A DNA stretch of 32,000 nt from Acidothermus cellulolyticus 11B (GCF_000015025.1 NC_008578.1:1470001-1502000), one strand, 5' to 3'. Positions 133 to 7,452 are shown, counted from the first letter of the stretch. Program-made: numbers and translations. The notes: generated from the letters alone by a model not told the origin.

Positions 133-1800
133 TCATGCTCGGCCGACGAGTCGGTTGAAGTCTTCGACGTGGTGGCACTTCTCCAACCCCGTCTCGTAGG
201 TAATCTTGCCGGATTTCACCAGCTCAGCGAGGCTCTGGTCCATCGTGTGCATGCCGTATTTCGCTCCGGCCTGCAGTGCGGAGTAAATCTGATGCGTCTT
301 CCCTTCCCGGATGAGGTTCCGGATCGCAGGCGTTGCGACCAGCACTTCCGTCGCCACCACGCGCGCCCGGCCGTCCGCCGTTTTGCAGAGCGTCTGAGCG
401 ACGATGCCCTGGAGCGATCCGGCTAGCTGCACCCGGATTTGCTGCTGCTGATGGGGTGGGAAGACGTCGATGATGCGGTCGATGGTCTGTGCGGCGTCCT
501 GGGTGTGCAAGGTCGCGAGCACCAGGTGTCCGGTTTCCGCCGCTGTCAAGGCAACCGAGATGGTCTCGAGGTCCCGCATCTCACCGACCAGGATGATGTC
601 TGGGTCTTGCCGCAGCACGTGTTTGAGGGCATTGGCGAAGGAATGCGTGTCATCGCCGACTTCCCGCTGGTTGACCAGACACGACTTGTGGGTGTGCAGG
701 AACTCGATGGGATCCTCGACCGTCATGATGTGGTCGCGGCGCTGCCGGTTCGCGATGTCGATGATGCCGGCGAGCGTCGTCGACTTTCCGGACCCGGTCG
801 GCCCGGTGACGAGGACAAAACCGCGCGGCAGCATCGCGAAATTTGCGACGGCGGGCGGAATTCCCAAGTCCTCCAACTTTTTTATTTCGAAGGGAATGAG
901 GCGGAACGCGGCGCCAAGTGCCTCACGCTGCCGGTACAGGTTGACCCGGAACCGCGCACGGCCGGGCACAGCGTACGCGAAGTCAAGTTCCAGCTCCTCT
1001 TCGAAGCGCTCCCGCTGTTTCTGGGTGAGAATCTCGTACATCATCTGGTGGATGACCGGCGGCGTCAGCACCGGCAAATCCTCCATCGGCACCAGACTGC
1101 CGTTGATGCGGAGCGTTGGCCGGGCCCCTGCGGTCAGGTGCAGGTCGGAGGCGTTGTGCTCGAGCACCCGGATCAGCATGTCGGTGAGGCTGACGCCCTC
1201 GAGCAGGCGCGGTTGGTCCATTCCGGTGCCCACCGTCGGGAAAGCCTCGCCCTGCGACGGCTGAATGCCGATCCCACTCGACGTCCCGACCACTCCCCCG
1301 TCAGCGGGCGGAGCGAGGGGTTGCAGCGCCGGTGCCGGAGACGAAGGGCTCGCAACTCCACGCGGCGGAGGAGTCGGCGCGGTCGGCGCCGGTGTAGGCG
1401 CCGGCGATGCGGCAAGCCCGGTGAACGGCGAGACGCCATTCCCGGCCACCGAGCTGCCGGACGCTGGGACACCGGATGGCGCACCCGTTCCCGGCGAGGG
1501 TGGAGGCGCGACGACCGACGGCAGCGGACCGAAGAGTGGATCGAAATCAGCGTTCGGCGCGTTCTGCGGCGATCCGCCCGCGGCGCCGGCCGGCGCAGGC
1601 ACCTGCGCCGTCCCGGACGGCGCGCGGTCGGCGTCCGGATTAGCAAAGAAACCGTACGGCTCCACGCAGCTACCCCTTTCGGCGCAGATTTGCCCGTCGG
1701 CGACGAGCAGTCTCCTGCAGGCATCGGACACCAGGCGGCTTCCCTTGAGCTCCGCCAACCGGGCGCCGCCGGCGCAGACCCGGCCCGCCGCGTTGTCCAC
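133..1800 (-). CDS. pilT: PilT-type twitching-motility (pilus retraction) ATPase with a ~190-aa N-terminal extension
   Basis: 555-aa ORF. The C-terminal ~355 aa carry Walker A GPTGSGKSTT, Walker B DPDIILVGEMRD, His box TGHLVLATLHT and the PilT/PilU signature AIRNLIREGK. The N-terminus has a 4-Cys segment followed by a P/A/S/G-rich linker. GTG at 1800 leaves 53 nt to the pilB stop. An internal ATG at 1221 would give a canonical-length PilT, so the start is uncertain. Confidence 0.88.
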   Translation of the reverse strand: MDNAAGRVCAGGARLAELKGSRLVSDACRRLLVADGQICAERGSCVEPYGFFANPDADRAPSGTAQVPAPAGAAGGSPQNAPNADFDPLFGPLPSVVAPPPSPGTGAPSGVPASGSSVAGNGVSPFTGLAASPAPTPAPTAPTPPPRGVASPSSPAPALQPLAPPADGGVVGTSSGIGIQPSQGEAFPTVGTGMDQPRLLEGVSLTDMLIRVLEHNASDLHLTAGARPTLRINGSLVPMEDLPVLTPPVIHQMMYEILTQKQRERFEEELELDFAYAVPGRARFRVNLYRQREALGAAFRLIPFEIKKLEDLGIPPAVANFAMLPRGFVLVTGPTGSGKSTTLAGIIDIANRQRRDHIMTVEDPIEFLHTHKSCLVNQREVGDDTHSFANALKHVLRQDPDIILVGEMRDLETISVALTAAETGHLVLATLHTQDAAQTIDRIIDVFPPHQQQQIRVQLAGSLQGIVAQTLCKTADGRARVVATEVLVATPAIRNLIREGKTHQIYSALQAGAKYGMHTMDQSLAELVKSGKITYETGLEKCHHVEDFNRLVGRA

Positions 1801-1853: not shown

Positions 1854-3515
1854 TCAGACGACCACGCGGAAAATCTCTTCGAGAGTCGTGACCCCGGCTG
1901 CGACTTTGCGCAGTCCGTCCTCGCGGAGGGTGACCATGCCCTGCTCACGGGCCACCCGGCCGATCGCCTCCGCGGAGGCCCGCTCCACGGCGAGTCGTTC
2001 GATCTCCTCAGTGACGGTCATGACCTCGTGCAGCGCAATCCGCCCCTTGTACCCCGTCTTCGCGCACGCCGCACAACCGACCGCCCGGTACAACGTGGGG
2101 AGCGGCTCGCCGTCCCGCCACGGGAATTTCGCCTCCCGCAGACTCTGCGGCGTCGGCATGTACGGTTCCTTGCATTTCTCGCAGAGCCGCCGGGCCAGTC
2201 GTTGCGCGAGAACACAGTCCAGGGCCGAGCCGACGAGGAACGGTTCAATCCCCATTTCGATAAGCCGGTTCACCGCGCTCGGCGCATCGTTGGTGTGCAG
2301 CGTCGACAGAACGAGGTGACCGGTCAATGCCGCCTCGATCGCGATCTGCGCCGTTTCGTGGTCCCGGATTTCGCCGATCAGCACGATGTCCGGGTCGGCG
2401 CGGAGAATCGTCCGCAGCGCCGACGCGAAGGTGAGACCCGCCTTGACGTTCGTTTGGATCTGGTTGATGCCTGGGAGCCGGTACTCCACCGGGTCTTCGA
2501 CCGTGATGACGTTCTTCTCCACCGACGAAATAATGTTGATCGTCGCATAAAGGGTTGTCGACTTCCCCGATCCGGTGGGCCCGGTGACGAGAATCATCCC
2601 GTACGGCTTAGTAAAACTCGCCGAATAGCGGGCGTAATTGTCTTCGGCGAACCCGAGGTCGCTGAGGGTCAGAAGCGCGGTCGAGGTGTCCAGAATCCGC
2701 ATGACAACTTTCTCGCCCCACACCGTCGGCAGCGAAGCGACCCGCAGGTCCACCTTCTTGCCGTTGACAGTCACCGACATGCGGCCGTCCTGCGGCACCC
2801 GGCGTTCCGCAATATTCATGTCCGCCATAATTTTCAGCCGGCTGATGACGCCGGACTGAATATTCCGCGGTGACCGCATCACCTCGTGCAGCACGCCGTC
2901 GATCCGGAACCGGACCCGCAAATCCCGCTCGGTCGGCTCGATGTGAATGTCCGACGCCCGGTCTTGCACCGCCTGGGTGATCAGCAGGTTGACGAATTTC
3001 ACGATGGGCGCGTCCTCGACCACCTCGTCGAGGCTTGCCAGGTCTTCGGTCTCCTCAGCCGCCAGCGTGCTCGTCAGGTCGTCGAGTTCCTCGTCGGCGC
3101 GGTGGTACCGGTTGATGGCGGCCAACACGTCGGCCCGGGTCGCGACGACCGGCTTGACGTCCAGGCCGGTGATCGACCGGATGTCGTCGATGGCAAAGAC
3201 GTTCGCCGGGTCGGCCATCGCGACGACGAGCTTGCCGTCTTCGTAACCGATCGGGAGCGCCGTGTACCGCCGGCAGACCGCCTCTGGCACCCGGGACACC
3301 GCCGAGCCGTCAATAGCGACGTCGGTCAGGTCGACGAACCGCAGGCCGATCTGGGTCGCCAAGGCGGCGACCAGCTGGGCTTCGGTCAGAATGCCTTGGT
3401 CGACGAGGACGCGACCGAGGCTGCGGCCGTTGCGTTGATGCTCGGCGTACGCGGCGGCGAGCTGTTCGGGGGTGACCAGGCCGCCTTCCAGAAGGATGTC
3501 GCCGAGTTGCTTCAT
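1854..3515 (-). CDS. pilB: PilB/GspE-type type IV pilus assembly (extension) ATPase
   Basis: N-terminal T2SSE_N/MshEN-like helical repeats, Walker A GPTGSGKSTT, Walker B DPDIVLIGEIRD, His box TGHLVLSTLHT, and tetra-Cys CEKC...CAAC. The ORF track begins at GTG 3521. I prefer ATG 3515 because the purine-rich GGGGGGA (complement of 3524-3530) lies 8 nt upstream of it. Confidence 0.92.
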   Translation of the reverse strand: MKQLGDILLEGGLVTPEQLAAAYAEHQRNGRSLGRVLVDQGILTEAQLVAALATQIGLRFVDLTDVAIDGSAVSRVPEAVCRRYTALPIGYEDGKLVVAMADPANVFAIDDIRSITGLDVKPVVATRADVLAAINRYHRADEELDDLTSTLAAEETEDLASLDEVVEDAPIVKFVNLLITQAVQDRASDIHIEPTERDLRVRFRIDGVLHEVMRSPRNIQSGVISRLKIMADMNIAERRVPQDGRMSVTVNGKKVDLRVASLPTVWGEKVVMRILDTSTALLTLSDLGFAEDNYARYSASFTKPYGMILVTGPTGSGKSTTLYATINIISSVEKNVITVEDPVEYRLPGINQIQTNVKAGLTFASALRTILRADPDIVLIGEIRDHETAQIAIEAALTGHLVLSTLHTNDAPSAVNRLIEMGIEPFLVGSALDCVLAQRLARRLCEKCKEPYMPTPQSLREAKFPWRDGEPLPTLYRAVGCAACAKTGYKGRIALHEVMTVTEEIERLAVERASAEAIGRVAREQGMVTLREDGLRKVAAGVTTLEEIFRVVV

Positions 3516-3622
3516 CGTCACATCCCCCCATCGGCCGGAAGGCCGTCTCCGCTACCGGAATGCGCTCCAGGCCACCGAGGTTCCACCGCTGACCCCAGCC
3601 GCACCGATCTCCTGCCGCCGGC

Positions 3623-4204
3623 TCAGGCCTGCGCCGCCGCGACGTCATCCAGCGAATCGACGACCGCATACAACAAGGCGAGAAGCACGTTCTTCACCGA
3701 CTCCCGATCGAGCGCATTACACGGCACGACCGGGGTCCGCTCATCGACGTCGAGGACATCCCGCACCCGGGCCGCCGTCTCCGGCTCCACCACGTCCGCG
3801 CGATTGAGCGCCACGACGAACGGAACGTTCGCCATCGCCCGGAAGGCGCGCAGGATTCCAACCGCTTCGTGCAAGGATTCGTCGCGTTCGGCGTCCACGA
3901 GCAGCACGTAACCGAGCATCCCCTCGCCGAGGATCTCCCACATGAAGTCGAACCGCTCTTGACCCGGCGTCCCGAAAAGGTAGAGCACAAGATCGTGATC
4001 GATCGTGATGCGCCCGAAGTCCATCGCGACGGTCGTTTCGTGCTTGCGGGCTCGGGTCTCGTCGGTGATCTCTTTCTCGGTGGAGAGAACCGTGATCTCA
4101 CTGATCGTACGGATCAGTGTCGTCTTGCCAGCCGCGAAGGGACCGGTAATTACGATCTTCACTGCCTGGGCGCTGCCGCCCCGGCGTCCGCGTTTGATCG
4201 TCAC
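3623..4204 (-). CDS. Small P-loop GTPase of the MglA/CvnD (conservon ATP/GTP-binding protein) type
   Basis: 193 aa. G1 is GPFAAGKTT, switch-I-like is ETTVAMDFG, G3 is LFGTPGQERF (Thr replaces the Ras Asp, as in MglA-like proteins), G4-like is LNRAD, and G5-like is PCNA. GTG start at 4204 is preceded by GGGAGGGG. It lies 31 nt downstream of the DUF4388 gene. Confidence 0.82.
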   Translation of the reverse strand: MTIKRGRRGGSAQAVKIVITGPFAAGKTTLIRTISEITVLSTEKEITDETRARKHETTVAMDFGRITIDHDLVLYLFGTPGQERFDFMWEILGEGMLGYVLLVDAERDESLHEAVGILRAFRAMANVPFVVALNRADVVEPETAARVRDVLDVDERTPVVPCNALDRESVKNVLLALLYAVVDSLDDVAAAQA

Positions 4205-4235: not shown

Positions 4236-5522
4236 TTACAGCCCCCTCACCCCGGCGATCAGCCGAAGCAGCAGGCTCTTGTTGACGCTCGGGTCGCGCT
4301 CGATACGCGGTCGCGGCTCGGACGCCGGCGAGGCGAGCGCAGCAGCCGTGCCGACAACGCGCGGCTCCGGCGGCTCCTCGGGGTAGGCAGGCCGGCGCGG
4401 CGGCAGGAACGGTTCCGGGCGGGGCGGCACGACCGGCTGCCGGGTGTCCGGGATGAGCCGCGGGCCGGCGTCCGGTTTGGCGGCGGCAAGCACCGACGCA
4501 ACCGTCGACGCGGCCGGCAGATCGGCGCTCTCGGGGTCGAACGCGAGCGCCGGATCCACGGCAGGTTCGCGCGCCGAGGCGGCTGTGCCCACGGCCGCGG
4601 CGGCCGGGCTGGCGGCGGCCGTGCCCCCGGGACTCGACGGGGTCGACGCTCGATCCGAGTCACCGCCGGTCTCCGGCTCGGCGGGTGCGGTCCGCTGCTC
4701 CGAGATCCGCGCGGACTCCGCCACGCCAGCCGAACCGCCGGCACCTCGATCCGCCGATGCGCCGCCGTCCAACCGGGACAACAGCTCGTGACGCCGGATG
4801 AGTCCGTCGACACCGCCGTCATCCTCGCCGCCGCGAACGATCAGCAACCGCCGTTCCACCAAACCCGCCAGGGTGGACACGACGGCGAAATCCCCCCGGC
4901 CGGCAAGCTGCACCAGCTCGGCAACGCTGCGCCGGCCGTCAACTAGCGCCAGCAGCGCCCACTCGGCCCGGGAGAGCCGGGGCTCCTCCCCGATGCAGAC
5001 CGGGACGGCAAGGACCGTCTGCGGCGATGGGATGATCCGGCACGCCCGTTCCCAGACATCCAACCGGCTTCGCGCCTCGGCGATCACCTCGTCCGTCGCG
5101 AGCCGGACCCCGACGTCGTCGGGCGAAACCTCGTCCAGGCCGAACGAGAACTCTCCATCCGGCCAGCGAAGAAAGTCAAAGACAGCGTCCACAGCCTGAT
5201 CCGTCACGACGCTGCGCAGCAAGGCGTCGTCGACCGCACCGGCGTCGAGCAGCGCACGGCCAACCCCGACGCCCTCACTCCTGGCACGTTCGACCGCCTG
5301 CTCGAGAACGCCGATCGGGACCTCAGCCGCCCCGATCAGCCGCCGGGCCAGCGATTGACGGCCGTTGTCGGCGAGTGCGCCCGTGATGGCGCCCTCCGCG
5401 AAGTAGACGCACCCGTGCTGGTTGCCACGGCGCAGGTGCAACCCGCCGGACTTCTTCGTGAAGCTGAGCAGCTGGAAGATGTCCGGAAGGCTGAAGGCGT
5501 CGAGCGAACCTTCGAGTTTCAC
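4236..5522 (-). CDS. DUF4388 (PATAN) domain protein with central winged-helix-like segment, long disordered P/A/S region and a short hydrophobic C-terminal peptide
   Basis: 428 aa. The N-terminus MKLEGSLDAFSLPDIFQLLSFTKKSGGLHLRRGNQHGCVYFAEGAI matches the L-x-G-x-L-x-x-F-x-L-x-D-(I/L)-x-Q-L...G-x-L...G-x-(I/V)-x-F-x-x-G signature of DUF4388. Residues ~182-229 (LSRAEWALLALVDGRRSVAELVQLAGRGDFAVVSTLAGLVERRLLIV) look like a wHTH. Stop is TAA at 4236. Confidence 0.8.
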   Translation of the reverse strand: MKLEGSLDAFSLPDIFQLLSFTKKSGGLHLRRGNQHGCVYFAEGAITGALADNGRQSLARRLIGAAEVPIGVLEQAVERARSEGVGVGRALLDAGAVDDALLRSVVTDQAVDAVFDFLRWPDGEFSFGLDEVSPDDVGVRLATDEVIAEARSRLDVWERACRIIPSPQTVLAVPVCIGEEPRLSRAEWALLALVDGRRSVAELVQLAGRGDFAVVSTLAGLVERRLLIVRGGEDDGGVDGLIRRHELLSRLDGGASADRGAGGSAGVAESARISEQRTAPAEPETGGDSDRASTPSSPGGTAAASPAAAAVGTAASAREPAVDPALAFDPESADLPAASTVASVLAAAKPDAGPRLIPDTRQPVVPPRPEPFLPPRRPAYPEEPPEPRVVGTAAALASPASEPRPRIERDPSVNKSLLLRLIAGVRGL

Positions 5523-5619: not shown

Positions 5620-6312
5620 TCAGCCCCATCCCGGACGATCAGGAAGGACGCTGCCCGACGGGGTGTACGACGACCACGGTGCGGGTTCTGGTTCGGCCGG
5701 CTGTTCGGTGGGGGCGGCAGCCGCCGAGGGTTCACCGGTGGCGGCGGCGTACGCCGTCTGGTACGGCTCCCCGGAAACCGTCGGAAAGCCTCCCGGCGGG
5801 CCGGCGGACGGTGTCGGCGGCGGGGAGCCGGCGGGCACCGTGACGCCGTACTCGCGCATCGTGTAATCCGCAAGGGTTTCGCGGATCGTCTCAACCGGCG
5901 GTGCCGGCGGCGGAGCGGGCGTCCGTAGCACGTCGGCGACCTGGCTGGCGGCGAGCCGGATCTCGTACAGCATCATGCCGACCTTCGCCCCCGCCGACGT
6001 GACAGCGACCAGCACCCCCTCGTCCTGCGCCGCCACCAGAAACACGGTGCCGTTCTCCCCCTCGATGTACACCTGGGAGAGGGCGCCTCGGCCCAAGCCC
6101 TGAGTCGCGCGTTCCGCGAGCGACAACAACGCGGCGCTCATGGCCGCGACCCGGTCCTCGTCCATGTCCGCAGGGAGTGCCGATGCCATCGGCAGCCCAT
6201 CGAACGAGACGACCGCTGCGGCCTCGATCCCCGGCGTCTGGCGGAGGAGGTCGTTGAGGATGCGGTCGAGACGGCTGGCCCGGCTGGTGGGATCAACGGG
6301 GACGGCGGACAT
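5620..6312 (-). CDS. Roadblock/LC7 (MglB/CvnB-like) domain protein with ~100-aa Pro-rich C-terminal tail
   Basis: The track ORF 5620-7140 is over-extended. The internal ATG at 6312 is preceded by GGAAAGAGGG. MSAVPVDPTSRASRLDRILNDLLRQTPGIEAAAVVSFDGLPMASAL...GTVFLVAAQDEGVLVAVTSAGAKVGMMLYEI is a typical Roadblock/LC7 fold sequence. The upstream part of the ORF is Arg/Asp/Gly-rich junk lying antisense to the membrane-protein gene. Confidence 0.8.
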   Translation of the reverse strand: MSAVPVDPTSRASRLDRILNDLLRQTPGIEAAAVVSFDGLPMASALPADMDEDRVAAMSAALLSLAERATQGLGRGALSQVYIEGENGTVFLVAAQDEGVLVAVTSAGAKVGMMLYEIRLAASQVADVLRTPAPPPAPPVETIRETLADYTMREYGVTVPAGSPPPTPSAGPPGGFPTVSGEPYQTAYAAATGEPSAAAAPTEQPAEPEPAPWSSYTPSGSVLPDRPGWG

Positions 6313-6450
6313 CGGACAAACCCTCTTTCCGGGACGGGTGCGACGCGTGATGCGGCCTTCCGCTATCCCTTCGGCGGTCCTGCCGGAGGGCTTGAATACA
6401 CCGGCGGCGCCGACGTCCCCGAAATTTCCACCATTGGATCTCGCGTCAAC

Positions 6451-7452
6451 GTGGCGCAGCCGGGCACAATATCCGCTATGCGTCAACTGATCAATTCGCC
6501 TCGGGTCATGCTCATGCTCGCCGCAGCGGCGGCCGTCGGTGCACTGGCCGCCGTCCTTGCCGGTTTGTCGTTCGCCCTCGCCTCGGTCTTCGACACCGGC
6601 GCGGCCCACGACCTCCGGGTCGGCGCCGCATGGATCGGCTTCGCCGCGTGGTTGATCGCCATCGTCGCGGTGGCACGCCTCGGCTGGCAGCTGATCTTGG
6701 AGTCCCGCTGGACGCCGGTGGCCGAGATCGGCGGGGTCGTGATCTCCGTTCTTCTGATCACGATCGGCGCGTTGGTTGACGCCCTCGATGTGACCGGACG
6801 TCGGGGCAGCGGCGGCGGGGTTCTCGCCGCCGTCGGTTTCGGGTTGCTTGGCCTGGCGGTGCTGGTTGTCGCCGCCCGCCAGTCGATCGCCGAGTTCCGG
6901 GAGAACGTCCAGCCGCACCGGCGGTCCGCTTACCTGTGGTCGTTCGGCGCCGGAGCGGCGATTCTGTACGCGATCGCGGTGGGGTTGACGGACACACCGC
7001 TCGGATTGGCTGGAACCACGGACGTCACGCAGGGCGACCTCATCGCGTCCGGCGTGCTCGCCCTGCTCTGCTGGGCCGTGCTCATTGCCGTCGCGGCCGG
7101 TGCGCTCCGGGTCGGCATCGCCCGGTTGGCGACCGTCCAAGGGCTTGTCGTTGCGCTGGGCATCCTCGTGCTGAGCGCGATCGCGCTGATCGTGGCTGCC
7201 GCGACCCAGATCCCGGTCTCCGCAGACCTCACCGGGTTCCGGGTCGCGTTCTCGCTCCCGGAATTCCTCCTCGCAGTTGGACTGCTCGTCCTGGCGTCGA
7301 TCTCAGCCGCGCGTGGGGACGCCTTCGGTGGTCTAGCCAGCCGGGTGCAGCCGGCTCCCCGCCCGGCGCCGGCACCGCCGGGCCCAACCACCCCGCCGGC
7401 GGCGGAGACGACACCGATGCCCGTCTCACCACCGGAACCACCGGGGGTCTGA
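6451..7452 (+). CDS. Hypothetical polytopic membrane protein (about 8 predicted TM helices) with Pro-rich C-terminal tail
   Basis: 333-aa ORF with eight hydrophobic 20-23-aa stretches and a PAPRPAPAPPGPTTPP tail. It is divergent from the Roadblock gene. GTG at 6451 or ATG at 6478 (MRQLINS...) are possible starts. I recognise no family. Confidence 0.55.
   Translation: MAQPGTISAMRQLINSPRVMLMLAAAAAVGALAAVLAGLSFALASVFDTGAAHDLRVGAAWIGFAAWLIAIVAVARLGWQLILESRWTPVAEIGGVVISVLLITIGALVDALDVTGRRGSGGGVLAAVGFGLLGLAVLVVAARQSIAEFRENVQPHRRSAYLWSFGAGAAILYAIAVGLTDTPLGLAGTTDVTQGDLIASGVLALLCWAVLIAVAAGALRVGIARLATVQGLVVALGILVLSAIALIVAAATQIPVSADLTGFRVAFSLPEFLLAVGLLVLASISAARGDAFGGLASRVQPAPRPAPAPPGPTTPPAAETTPMPVSPPEPPGV

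Follow-up and report, generated by a model that had tools for sequence, protein, structure and literature searches.

A gene at 4236..5522 (-) in a 32,000-nucleotide stretch of DNA from Acidothermus cellulolyticus 11B (GCF_000015025.1, NC_008578.1:1470001-1502000), which we refer to as the window, encodes a 428-residue fusion of a PATAN/DUF4388 domain with a CvnC-like module. It lies between the genes for a Roadblock protein and a Ras-like small GTPase, and genes for PilB- and PilT-type ATPases follow. We propose that its product is a two-module adaptor in a sensor-kinase-less conservon wired to the type IV pilus motor, a reading that we place slightly above even odds, at a probability of about 0.55. 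The architecture of the protein, its conservation, the synteny of the locus and the similarities at the level of profiles and folds are what this analysis shows.

Architecture of the fusion protein

The gene is a single uninterrupted open reading frame (ORF), running from a GTG start (MKLEGSLDAF; N-terminus MKLEGSLDAFSLPDIF) to a stop codon at 4236-4238. The original prediction, made from the sequence alone, had named four parts in its product, a PATAN/DUF4388 head, a DUF742-like winged helix, a disordered linker of ~180 residues and a short hydrophobic C-terminal peptide, and all four were found where it had placed them. In an AlphaFold2 model run on a 27-sequence alignment, residues 1-233 are folded at a predicted local distance difference test score (pLDDT) of ~90, and conservation across 118 relatives (~55% overall identity) is high along residues 1-254. 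When the whole protein and its separate segments were scanned, Pfam returned DUF4388 and HTH_27 (E=0.21) alone, and NCBIfam gave no match.

The PATAN/DUF4388 domain occupies residues 4-158 (5049..5513, (-)), somewhat beyond the ~135 residues first assigned to it. It matches the full Pfam PF14332 model (positions 1-122) at 89.8 bits against a cutoff of 25 (E=1.7e-25), and the same match is present in all 118 relatives. Its pLDDT is 84-96, apart from a dip to 72 at residues 51-60. Between its beta elements the model places four helices, the 'alpha-clip' insertion, at residues 54-118 (5169-5363, (-)). Foldseek returned a local match to the N-terminal domain of X. citri PilB (7lkm_B; probability 0.94, rmsd 1.6, 52 columns), in which the aligned query residues are not shown. 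A C-terminal CheY-like receiver domain was sought in the window protein and in remote relatives, with no Response_reg match at E<=1; what follows the PATAN domain in the model is a winged helix-turn-helix (wHTH) and a disordered linker.

In cyanobacteria, the PATAN domain of PixE binds the N-terminal domains of PilB1 and PilC, and its membrane localization is independent of PilB/PilC (bioRxiv 10.1101/2021.06.11.447907). PATAN genes have also been noted near mglA/mglB homologues (PMC4316618), a loose neighbourhood association reported in 2006 and 2014. The PilB protein of the window itself has a weak DUF4388 match (E=0.0076) at residues 30-59, upstream of MshEN, which fits the kinship reported for the PATAN alpha-clip and the N-terminal repeats of PilB/GspE.

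The winged-helix core

The central segment of the protein, LSRAEWALLALVDGRRSVAELVQLAGRGDFAVVSTLAGLVERRLLIV as originally read, forms part of a DUF742-like winged-helix core at residues 165-233 (4824..5030, (-)), which was delimited by AlphaFold2, hhalign and sub-threshold Pfam matches. The model shows a leading strand (170-172), three helices (185-193, 200-207 and 211-223) and a wing (strand 228-230) at a pLDDT of ~90-95. The AlphaFold2 model of a canonical DUF742 protein, P0121, has a strand at 39-42, helices at 52-60, 67-74 and 78-90, a strand at 94-97, a loop and a last helix at 108-120. Compared by element order, the two models run through the same succession of elements, with helices of equal length and a constant offset of 133 between them.

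Profile-profile comparison points in the same direction. We used hhalign to compare 186 family sequences with 21 or 14 diverse DUF742 sequences (11 diverse proteins from plasmid conservons plus database members; the 14 are representatives at <60% identity). Residues 160-233 aligned with DUF742 columns ~24-100 at a probability of 84% (21 sequences) or 68% (14), with P=7e-6 to 5e-5 in a comparison confined to DUF742, and the PATAN domain, taken as a control, reached 0.1%. A narrower DUF742 set of the Kitasatospora type gave a consistent register at <7 bits and a probability of 12-38%; it was replaced by the diverse sequences.

Foldseek searches were evaluated by the overlap between the lists for the two models. 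The top PDB neighbours common to both are 8adl_S, 9h4q_T, 9o5a_C/H, 9o5d_C/D, 9v0j_A/B, 8jj9_A, 3k9t and 2yu3. These comprise Npr2/Npr3 and NPRL2/NPRL3 of SEACIT/GATOR1, the FAM91A1 N-terminal domain, 3k9t and the RPC39 winged helix (2yu3), and not MarR repressors. The P0121 model matched 8adl_S at E=0.019 (probability 1.00, rmsd 2.5, 74 columns). The full-length model of the window protein had no Foldseek match at E<=0.001, and PDB sequence searches with full-family, central-domain and DUF742 profiles yielded nothing meaningful. Central-profile matches (E~1e-9) to designed Kelch 'SAKe' proteins were rejected as sums of weak repeats of ~6 bits each.

Several results weigh against a DUF742 assignment of the core. 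Pfam DUF742 (PF05331, gathering score 27 bits) does not match the window protein or its central segment even at E<=10. Single-sequence scans of the 118 relatives gave sub-threshold matches to MarR_2 in 56, to HTH_27 in 24 and to DUF742 in 3 (best E=0.0038), so generic MarR_2 matches are far commoner; the DUF742 match of P0282, also below threshold, scores 14.2 bits and pairs residues 168-233 with model positions 25-90. The window protein lacks the N-terminal RPYxxTGGR motif of the diverse DUF742 alignment and has the PATAN domain ahead of its wHTH instead. The hhalign probabilities, 68-92% across all comparisons, are of a size that any pair of HTH-clan members would typically show and come from our own alignments scored without secondary structure, and the E-values of all structural neighbours are weak (0.02-1). 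Because DUF742 matches are lacking at E<=10 in the window protein and are sub-threshold in 3/118 relatives, with MarR_2 far commoner, the core could be a generic winged helix. The protein is 'CvnC-like' and not a Pfam DUF742 member. Of the similarity to DUF742 and wHTH profiles originally expected for the central segment, the wHTH fold, the element order and the sub-threshold Pfam matches stand, the profile-profile similarity points the same way, and what is missing is a Pfam DUF742 match and the RPYxxTGGR motif. The CvnC reading thus appears to hold at the profile level and fails at the Pfam threshold.

The C-terminal peptide

The protein closes with an invariant peptide, IERDPSVNKSLLLRLIAGVRGL (residues 406-428; 4239..4307, (-)), which we propose as the counterpart of the DUF742 C-terminal helix. 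It is the most conserved stretch of the whole protein: 17 of its residues are strictly invariant among the 118 relatives and the other five are conserved at >=90%, in agreement with the expectation that the last ~20 residues would be conserved and the linker would not. A recognizable peptide with the core LLxRLIxGVxGL was found in at least 80 of the 94 N-terminally complete representatives of 50%-identity clusters; most of the remainder look truncated or frame-shifted.

AlphaFold2 predicts a helix at residues 411-422. Canonical DUF742 proteins end in a helix with LLxxVLxGLRxL (for example ...PDRALLEAVMHGLQKL, ...DRELLSAVLDGLKTRFGA and ...VELLEDVLNGLRRLKAVG), and the window protein ends in ...NKSLLLRLIAGVRGL. 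With the peptide spliced to the core, the hhalign alignment extended to the DUF742 C-terminus in the register SLLLRLIAGVRGL / LLexVlxGLrxl, and the score rose in both comparisons, to 39.5-40.7 (probability 90-92%) where the core had scored 34.4 and to 37.2-39.0 (87-90%) where it had scored 30.2. When the columns of the peptide were shuffled 20 times, no shuffle scored as high as the real order (maximum 38.0). A position-specific scoring matrix (PSSM) of the peptide ranked the tails of 11 diverse DUF742 proteins above those of 792 background ORFs (Mann-Whitney p=1.3e-5). A shared motif, ΦΦxxΦΦxGΦ+, occurs within the last 30 residues of 14/14 DUF742 representatives and 60/60 family ORFs, compared to 1/792 background ORFs.

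Since the splicing, PSSM and motif tests agree, we interpret the peptide, with moderate confidence, as the last helix, now displaced, of a DUF742-like module rather than as a novel add-on. Two points count against this equivalence: the pLDDT of the C-terminal helix is just ~62, and the motif expression was written after seeing both families, which makes its counts illustrative. As the peptide matches the DUF742 C-terminal helix motif, the 'linker' is therefore probably an internal DUF742 loop of 10-20 residues expanded to ~175.

The linker

Immediately after the wing lies a conserved helix, residues 238-254 (4761..4811, (-)), with the pattern ALxRRHxLLxRLE and a pLDDT of ~77; L241, R243, L248, L251 and E252 are each conserved at >=90% in the 118 sequences. 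This helix was considered as the counterpart of the DUF742 last helix and rejected, since unlike the terminal peptide it brought no hhalign gain when added. Residues 255-408 are predicted to be disordered (pLDDT ~40). They begin with a variable P/A/S/G/E-rich region at residues 255-359 (4446..4760, (-); pLDDT ~40), in which the commonest-residue frequency over residues 255-330 is 0.19 and the mean gap fraction 0.52 in the relatives' alignment, and in which a segment STVASVLAAA around residues 333-345 is partly conserved. A proline-rich short linear motif follows at residues 360-382 (4377..4445, (-)), RxxVxPxRPEPFxPxRxPxxPE. Its mean conservation is 0.62 versus 0.19-0.39 in the linker on either side, and R361, P366, R368, P369, E370, P371, F372, P374, R376, P378 and P381 are conserved at >=90% among the 118 sequences. 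A second variable disordered stretch, residues 383-405 (4308..4376, (-); pLDDT <50, conservation 0.39), leads to the peptide. The linker is therefore variable and predicted to be disordered, as proposed, but not featureless. The proline motif and the helix at 238-254 would be further candidate docking sites, and the invariant 20-residue peptide and the proline motif are candidate interaction handles. Long low-complexity regions occur in three proteins of the cluster, namely the Roadblock protein, the adaptor and possibly PilT.

The linker varies in sequence and in length, with total protein lengths of 289-511 amino acids among 186 complete-looking proteins. High-GC, low-complexity DNA of this kind favours indel errors, and a few database relatives carry R/P/S-rich tails that are out of frame, so we asked whether a PATAN-wHTH gene and a small peptide gene might have been joined through a frameshift that arose in the GC-rich linker during sequencing or assembly. 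GC content at third codon positions (GC3) is uniform at 0.80-0.87 throughout the linker, and the C-terminal peptide is in frame in every orthologue despite many linker indels; an artefact is excluded for these two reasons. The same one-ORF build with its in-frame terminal peptide recurs in hundreds of independent assemblies, whose linker lengths vary throughout while the frame is kept. The artefact reading, which the original prediction had raised as a possible objection to itself, is already refuted.

Genomic context and conservation of the locus

The fusion gene occupies the CvnC position, as had been recognized, with a CvnB-type Roadblock gene on one side and a CvnD-type GTPase gene on the other. 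The Roadblock/LC7 gene (CvnB/MfpD-type; 5620..6327, (-)) matches Pfam Robl_LC7 at E=2e-19, and its PDB matches, led by 7f8m_A (E=8e-21), include Rv3364c (E=5e-13) and CvnB5 (E=1e-11), with MglC at just E=0.03. Its C-terminal tail is P-rich, with ~100 proline-rich residues after the Robl_LC7 domain (5620-~5920, (-)). The small Ras-like GTPase (CvnD/MfpB-type, MglA superfamily; 3623..4204, (-)) was identified by Pfam ATP_bind_1/Ras and TIGR small_GTP and has the P-loop GPFAAGKT and the G3 motif GTPGQ. It is 40-46% identical (~46% at best) to 'ATP/GTP-binding proteins' of conservons on Streptomyces and Kitasatospora plasmids, each of whose genes is preceded by a Roadblock gene and an annotated DUF742 gene. 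MglA is its closest solved structure (E=1e-4). Reading G3 as the MglA 'Thr' signature was dropped, as a Gly aligns to the Thr of MglA.

Next come a PilB-type type IV pilus extension ATPase (1854..3521, (-); Pfam T2SSE E=5e-142, MshEN E=1e-24) and a PilT-like retraction ATPase (133..1800, (-); Pfam T2SSE E=1e-46), whose core runs from about nucleotide 1190 downward and whose orthologues, 77-97% identical, follow PilB in orthologous loci. The intergenic gaps from Roadblock to fusion gene, GTPase, PilB and PilT are 97, 31, 101 and about 53 bp, and a promoter/terminator scan, otherwise uninformative, gave no terminator-like sites between the genes of the cluster. Upstream of the Roadblock gene lie aroE, mltG, ruvX and alaS. 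Among the major ORFs scanned in the rest of the 32-kb window we found housekeeping genes (rarA, aspS, hisS, relA, secDF) and no CvnA-type histidine kinase; canonical plasmid conservons do encode the kinase.

Homologues of the fusion protein are numerous, with 1336 at E<=0.001 among the scored candidates. A profile of the central domain (residues 158-256) retrieved 788 representatives of 50%-identity clusters at E<=0.001, and in nearly all of the best 150 of these 788 the central domain begins ~160 residues from the N-terminus of a protein of 290-510 amino acids. The order mltG-aroE-Roadblock-fusion gene-GTPase is kept, wherever the contig allows, in 80 species-level genomes of Acidothermaceae, Frankiaceae, Sporichthyaceae and related 'Mycobacteriales' metagenome-assembled genomes (MAGs). 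In 80/80 loci with enough flank the Roadblock gene stands upstream of the fusion gene and aroE directly before the Roadblock gene. PilB-PilT lie directly downstream of the GTPase gene in most of the 80 loci; complete genomes whose triad has no pilB/pilT alongside include AP028633.1 and CAWCPQ010000001.1.

The peptide appears to follow the GTPase rather than PilB. Where Roadblock and GTPase genes occur with no PilB next to them (e.g. L015/P0098), the peptide keeps its invariant sequence; in the cultured Acidothermaceae strain B102 (L032) the comparison covers the arrangement of genes, which is alike. In five remote relatives, by comparison, the peptide is off consensus, and PilB is adjacent in at least four of the five. 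Between adaptor and PilB, L095/P0384 has a GTPase relic with the P-loop GPPGAGTT (L095:7215-7811; peptide GLLMRLIDGVKQA), L099/P0324 a 149-residue relic with GPPGSGRR (L099:1115-1564; ELLRRAIAAVTSL), L098/P0282 a relic of 105 residues (L098:1524-1841; ATLLRLINALERMP) and L105/P0382 a 188-residue protein with no P-loop (L105:995-1561; VVARLIDGVRGL), and in L102/P0388 no gene lies between the two (GLLNRLFDGVKGQ). The degenerate GTPases of remote relatives have thus lost the P-loop Lys, are shortened to 105-149 residues or lack a P-loop, and the Roadblock gene is missing too in some of these loci. The pattern fits split roles, with the PATAN domain serving the motor and the wHTH and terminal helix serving the G-protein module. 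A caveat is that this co-degeneration concerns about five loci and is confounded by overall divergence.

Proposed mechanism and alternative explanations

Following this division of labour, we propose that module 1, the PATAN domain (residues 4-158), would hold PilB/PilC. Module 2 would be a CvnC/DUF742-like unit made up of the winged-helix core (165-233) and the invariant C-terminal helix (about 408-428), in which the short DUF742 loop would have expanded to about 175 mostly disordered residues with a conserved helix and a proline motif. By analogy with MfpC/MfpD, module 2 would act with the neighbouring Roadblock protein in binding and regulating the neighbouring GTPase. The DUF742 protein MfpC is a reported exchange factor for the conservon GTPase MfpB (PMC11343762), and the Roadblock protein MfpD is a reported GTPase-activating protein (GAP) of MfpB (PMC11343762; PMC9769811). 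Pilus extension would then be switched or localized according to the GTPase's nucleotide state, and the system could be viewed as an actinobacterial counterpart of MglA/MglB pilus control in Myxococcus. The functional link to pili, and with it every physical interaction, the exchange-factor activity and any effect on pili, is what we infer from sequence, structure prediction and gene order; the DUF742 relationship on which it draws lies below curated thresholds. Two points speak for caution: the exchange-factor activity of DUF742 was reported in one study of one protein, and PilB/PilT are not found within 10 kb in about 12/80 loci. For the latter reason the triad may have targets other than pili.

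The proposal that a PATAN domain has been fused to a CvnC-like adaptor is supported by profile-profile, fold and synteny evidence, and two alternatives concern the modules themselves. The wHTH might be an ordinary MarR-type DNA-binding domain, which would make the protein a transcription factor, for instance of pil genes, with the PATAN domain as its sensor or partner, and its position between the Roadblock and GTPase genes would not reflect CvnC descent. MarR_2 and HTH_27 are indeed the commonest sub-threshold matches, remote relatives show the same pattern, and DNA binding was once predicted for PATAN proteins (mentioned in bioRxiv 10.1101/2021.06.11.447907). However, neither the 'recognition' helix AVVSTLAGLVERR nor the wing LLIVRGGEDD is basic and polar; both are hydrophobic or acidic, as they are in DUF742, and the AlphaFold2 model has no MarR dimerization helices. 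Moreover, the DUF742 alignment is not confined to the tri-helical core but takes in the leading strand and the C-terminal helix, and the nearest structures, for this protein as for DUF742, are protein-binding wHTHs of GATOR1/SEACIT and not MarR repressors. Of the readings weighed in this section we give this one the least credence.

Alternatively, the peptide could be a membrane-targeting amphipathic helix like the C-termini of MinD and FtsA, anchoring the protein near the pilus base and unrelated to DUF742. The amphipathic KSLLLRLIAGVRGL has basic residues on its flanks, it ends the protein behind a long flexible tether, and the PixE PATAN domain is found at the membrane independently of PilB/PilC. 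Yet targeting helices tolerate substitution, and 17 invariant residues with the rest at >=90% argue for a stereospecific protein interface. The same motif closes canonical DUF742 proteins in 14/14 representatives, the corresponding helix of P0121 is modelled at a pLDDT of 70-84 as part of a small domain, and the peptide degenerates where the GTPase degenerates. We therefore regard membrane anchoring as unlikely, if marginally less so than a DNA-binding role. The original prediction had left docking and membrane targeting side by side; because every residue of the peptide is fixed, docking is favoured and generic membrane targeting less so.

A third alternative concerns the target. The Roadblock-adaptor-GTPase triad might be a general polarity or cell-envelope module (growth zone, division, polysaccharide export), with pilB/pilT adjacency as a frequent neighbourhood only and a PATAN partner other than PilB. 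It gains weight from the dozen loci without nearby PilB/PilT, from strain B102 (L032), in which glycosyltransferase genes follow the GTPase gene instead of PilB/PilT, from the constant placement of the triad beside mltG-aroE, and from Anabaena PatA, which is reported to interact with the divisome (PMC7380572). On the other hand, PilB is the most persistent neighbour and is kept in remote relatives without Roadblock or GTPase (L095, L097, L098, L099, L102), PilB and PilC are the only experimentally defined PATAN partners (bioRxiv 10.1101/2021.06.11.447907), and the 12 exceptions may have their pil genes in other parts of the genome. We consider a general envelope module improbable overall, although it is the strongest of these three alternatives.

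A bolder form of the two-module adaptor, which we put forward tentatively as a minority possibility, is that DUF742 proteins generally are bipartite docking subunits, whose wHTH and terminal LLxxΦΦxGΦR helix clamp the Roadblock-GTPase pair. In this lineage, the hinge would have lengthened into a ~175-residue tether that adds a proline-rich docking motif, and the unit as a whole would have been joined to a PilB-binding PATAN domain. If true, this would give an actinobacterial G-protein system an identifiable direct effector for the first time, namely the type IV pilus motor, in a kinase-independent version of such a system. The tether would let the motor-bound adaptor capture or release the GTPase, acting as a spatial switch between pilus extension and retraction, and DUF742 would be tied structurally to the winged-helix regulators of Rag GTPases (NPRL2/3).

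Comparison with known systems

The closest parallel is CvnC/MfpC of the conservons (PF05331). Common to both are a gene between those for a CvnB-type Roadblock protein and a CvnD-type GTPase, a winged-helix core of strand, three helices and strand followed by a C-terminal helix with the LLxxΦΦxGΦ+ motif, and the same set of nearest PDB folds; the profile-profile probability is 87-92% once core and helix are joined. The fusion protein differs in remaining below the Pfam threshold, in carrying a 158-residue PATAN domain in place of RPYxxTGGR, and in its loop between wing and last helix, which has ~175 residues with a helix and a proline motif of its own, compared to ~10-20. Unlike in conservons, no CvnA sensor kinase is encoded nearby.

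The PatA-type PATAN-REC regulators of cyanobacteria (PixE, PixG, LsiR, PatA) share the N-terminal PATAN/DUF4388 domain with its alpha-clip and a genetic tie to the type IV pilus motor, their PATAN being a proposed PilB/PilC-binding output domain. The protein described here has no receiver domain, so that its input would be a GTPase cycle and not phosphorylation, and its lineage is Actinomycetota.

The MglA-MglB system of Myxococcus xanthus (with SgmX/RomR-RomX) likewise combines a Ras-like GTPase with a Roadblock regulator, in a position to control pili that depend on PilB/PilT; among solved structures MglA is the nearest to the GTPase, and PATAN genes have been noted near mglA/mglB. Here, however, the GTPase and the Roadblock protein are much closer to CvnD/CvnB, the latter closer to CvnB than to MglB/MglC. 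G3 is GTPGQ where MglA has TVPGQ, and the GTPase lacks the Thr that marks Group 1 MglA proteins. The adaptor is unrelated to SgmX, a tetratricopeptide repeat (TPR) protein, or to RomR/RomX, and all components lie in one cluster.

The SEACIT/GATOR1 complex is a GAP for Rag GTPases. Foldseek gave its subunits NPRL2/NPRL3 (Npr2/Npr3) as best matches for the DUF742 model and the model of the fusion protein alike, and they are winged-helix regulators acting on Rag GTPases with the Roadblock-domain Ragulator (Roadblock/longin proteins). The resemblance is weak (E 0.02-1) and one of structure, not sequence, and the complexes and their biology are very different. The models thus give hints, at weak E-values, that bacterial Roadblock/wHTH/GTPase modules might be structurally linked to the eukaryotic Rag machinery.

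To our knowledge, conservons are widespread and their downstream effectors are largely unknown. The parts of the present locus are already known: PATAN, a DUF742-like wHTH, Roadblock, a CvnD-like GTPase and PilB/PilT. In the literature searched, we found neither a PATAN fusion to a CvnC-like module nor a CvnC-like module split by a long disordered insert, nor a conservon without the CvnA kinase, nor a fixed placement directly upstream of pilB-pilT across a whole actinobacterial clade. Conservons have been defined by 'a minimum of four proteins' with the CvnA kinase as a core component, and a conservon survey maps systems through the sensor kinase (PMC13621833). The locus described here would be a version that lacks the kinase and is conserved in relatives of Acidothermaceae, Frankiaceae and Sporichthyaceae. 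Its CvnC-like subunit is joined in one protein to a domain that, in other organisms, is known to bind the pilus extension motor, and its genes stand directly upstream of pilB-pilT. The type IV pilus motor is thereby a predicted target for an actinobacterial G-protein switch. The targets of conservon GTPases and the role of CvnC/DUF742 become questions of binding and nucleotide exchange that can be put to defined fragments. More broadly, our analysis suggests that the GTPase/Roadblock control of pili known from Myxococcus has an independent and differently built counterpart in Gram-positive actinobacteria.

Additional observations

Some features of the locus and its relatives stand apart from these questions. 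The PilT-like ORF has a ~200-codon P/A/S/G-rich stretch upstream of the ATPase core (~1190-1800). Orthologous loci keep a distance of 600-730 bp from the PilB stop to the PilT core, and in L095 a 517-residue gene is called at this place. The codon-position GC signal is ambiguous, and this N-terminal extension may or may not be translated.

Two proteins, P0361 (1455 residues) and P0379 (1492 residues), combine a PATAN-like N-terminus with 4-5 separate matches to the central wHTH profile, and may be multi-repeat relatives or mis-joined gene calls. On plasmid pDEIPR01 of Deinococcus proteolyticus, a 180-residue 'hypothetical protein' (L083:3485-4027) is encoded directly upstream of GTPase and Roadblock genes, the GTPase being 43% identical to that of the window. 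It has a wHTH-like segment and ends in ...RRFLNALRRLTGGA, reminiscent of the build of the fusion protein in miniature; the profile comparison was not significant (probability 0.1%), and we make no claim of relationship.

In one metagenomic relative, L103, genes for a 164-residue, a 219-residue and a DUF7305 protein lie between the GTPase gene and two tandem PilB paralogues (L103:6812-9383), and a PIN/MazE toxin-antitoxin pair is inserted between mltG and aroE. A contig labelled as a Spirochaetaceae MAG (L074, JAJAYQ010000222.1) contains a typical actinobacterial mltG-aroE-Roadblock-PATAN locus with 46-77% identity to the window proteins, probably through a binning error. Finally, between aroE and the Roadblock gene the window contains a 333-residue multi-pass membrane ORF on the opposite strand (6451-7452, (+)), for which Pfam gave no match; since the spacing between these two genes is just ~100-250 bp in most orthologous loci, it looks like a lineage-specific insertion.

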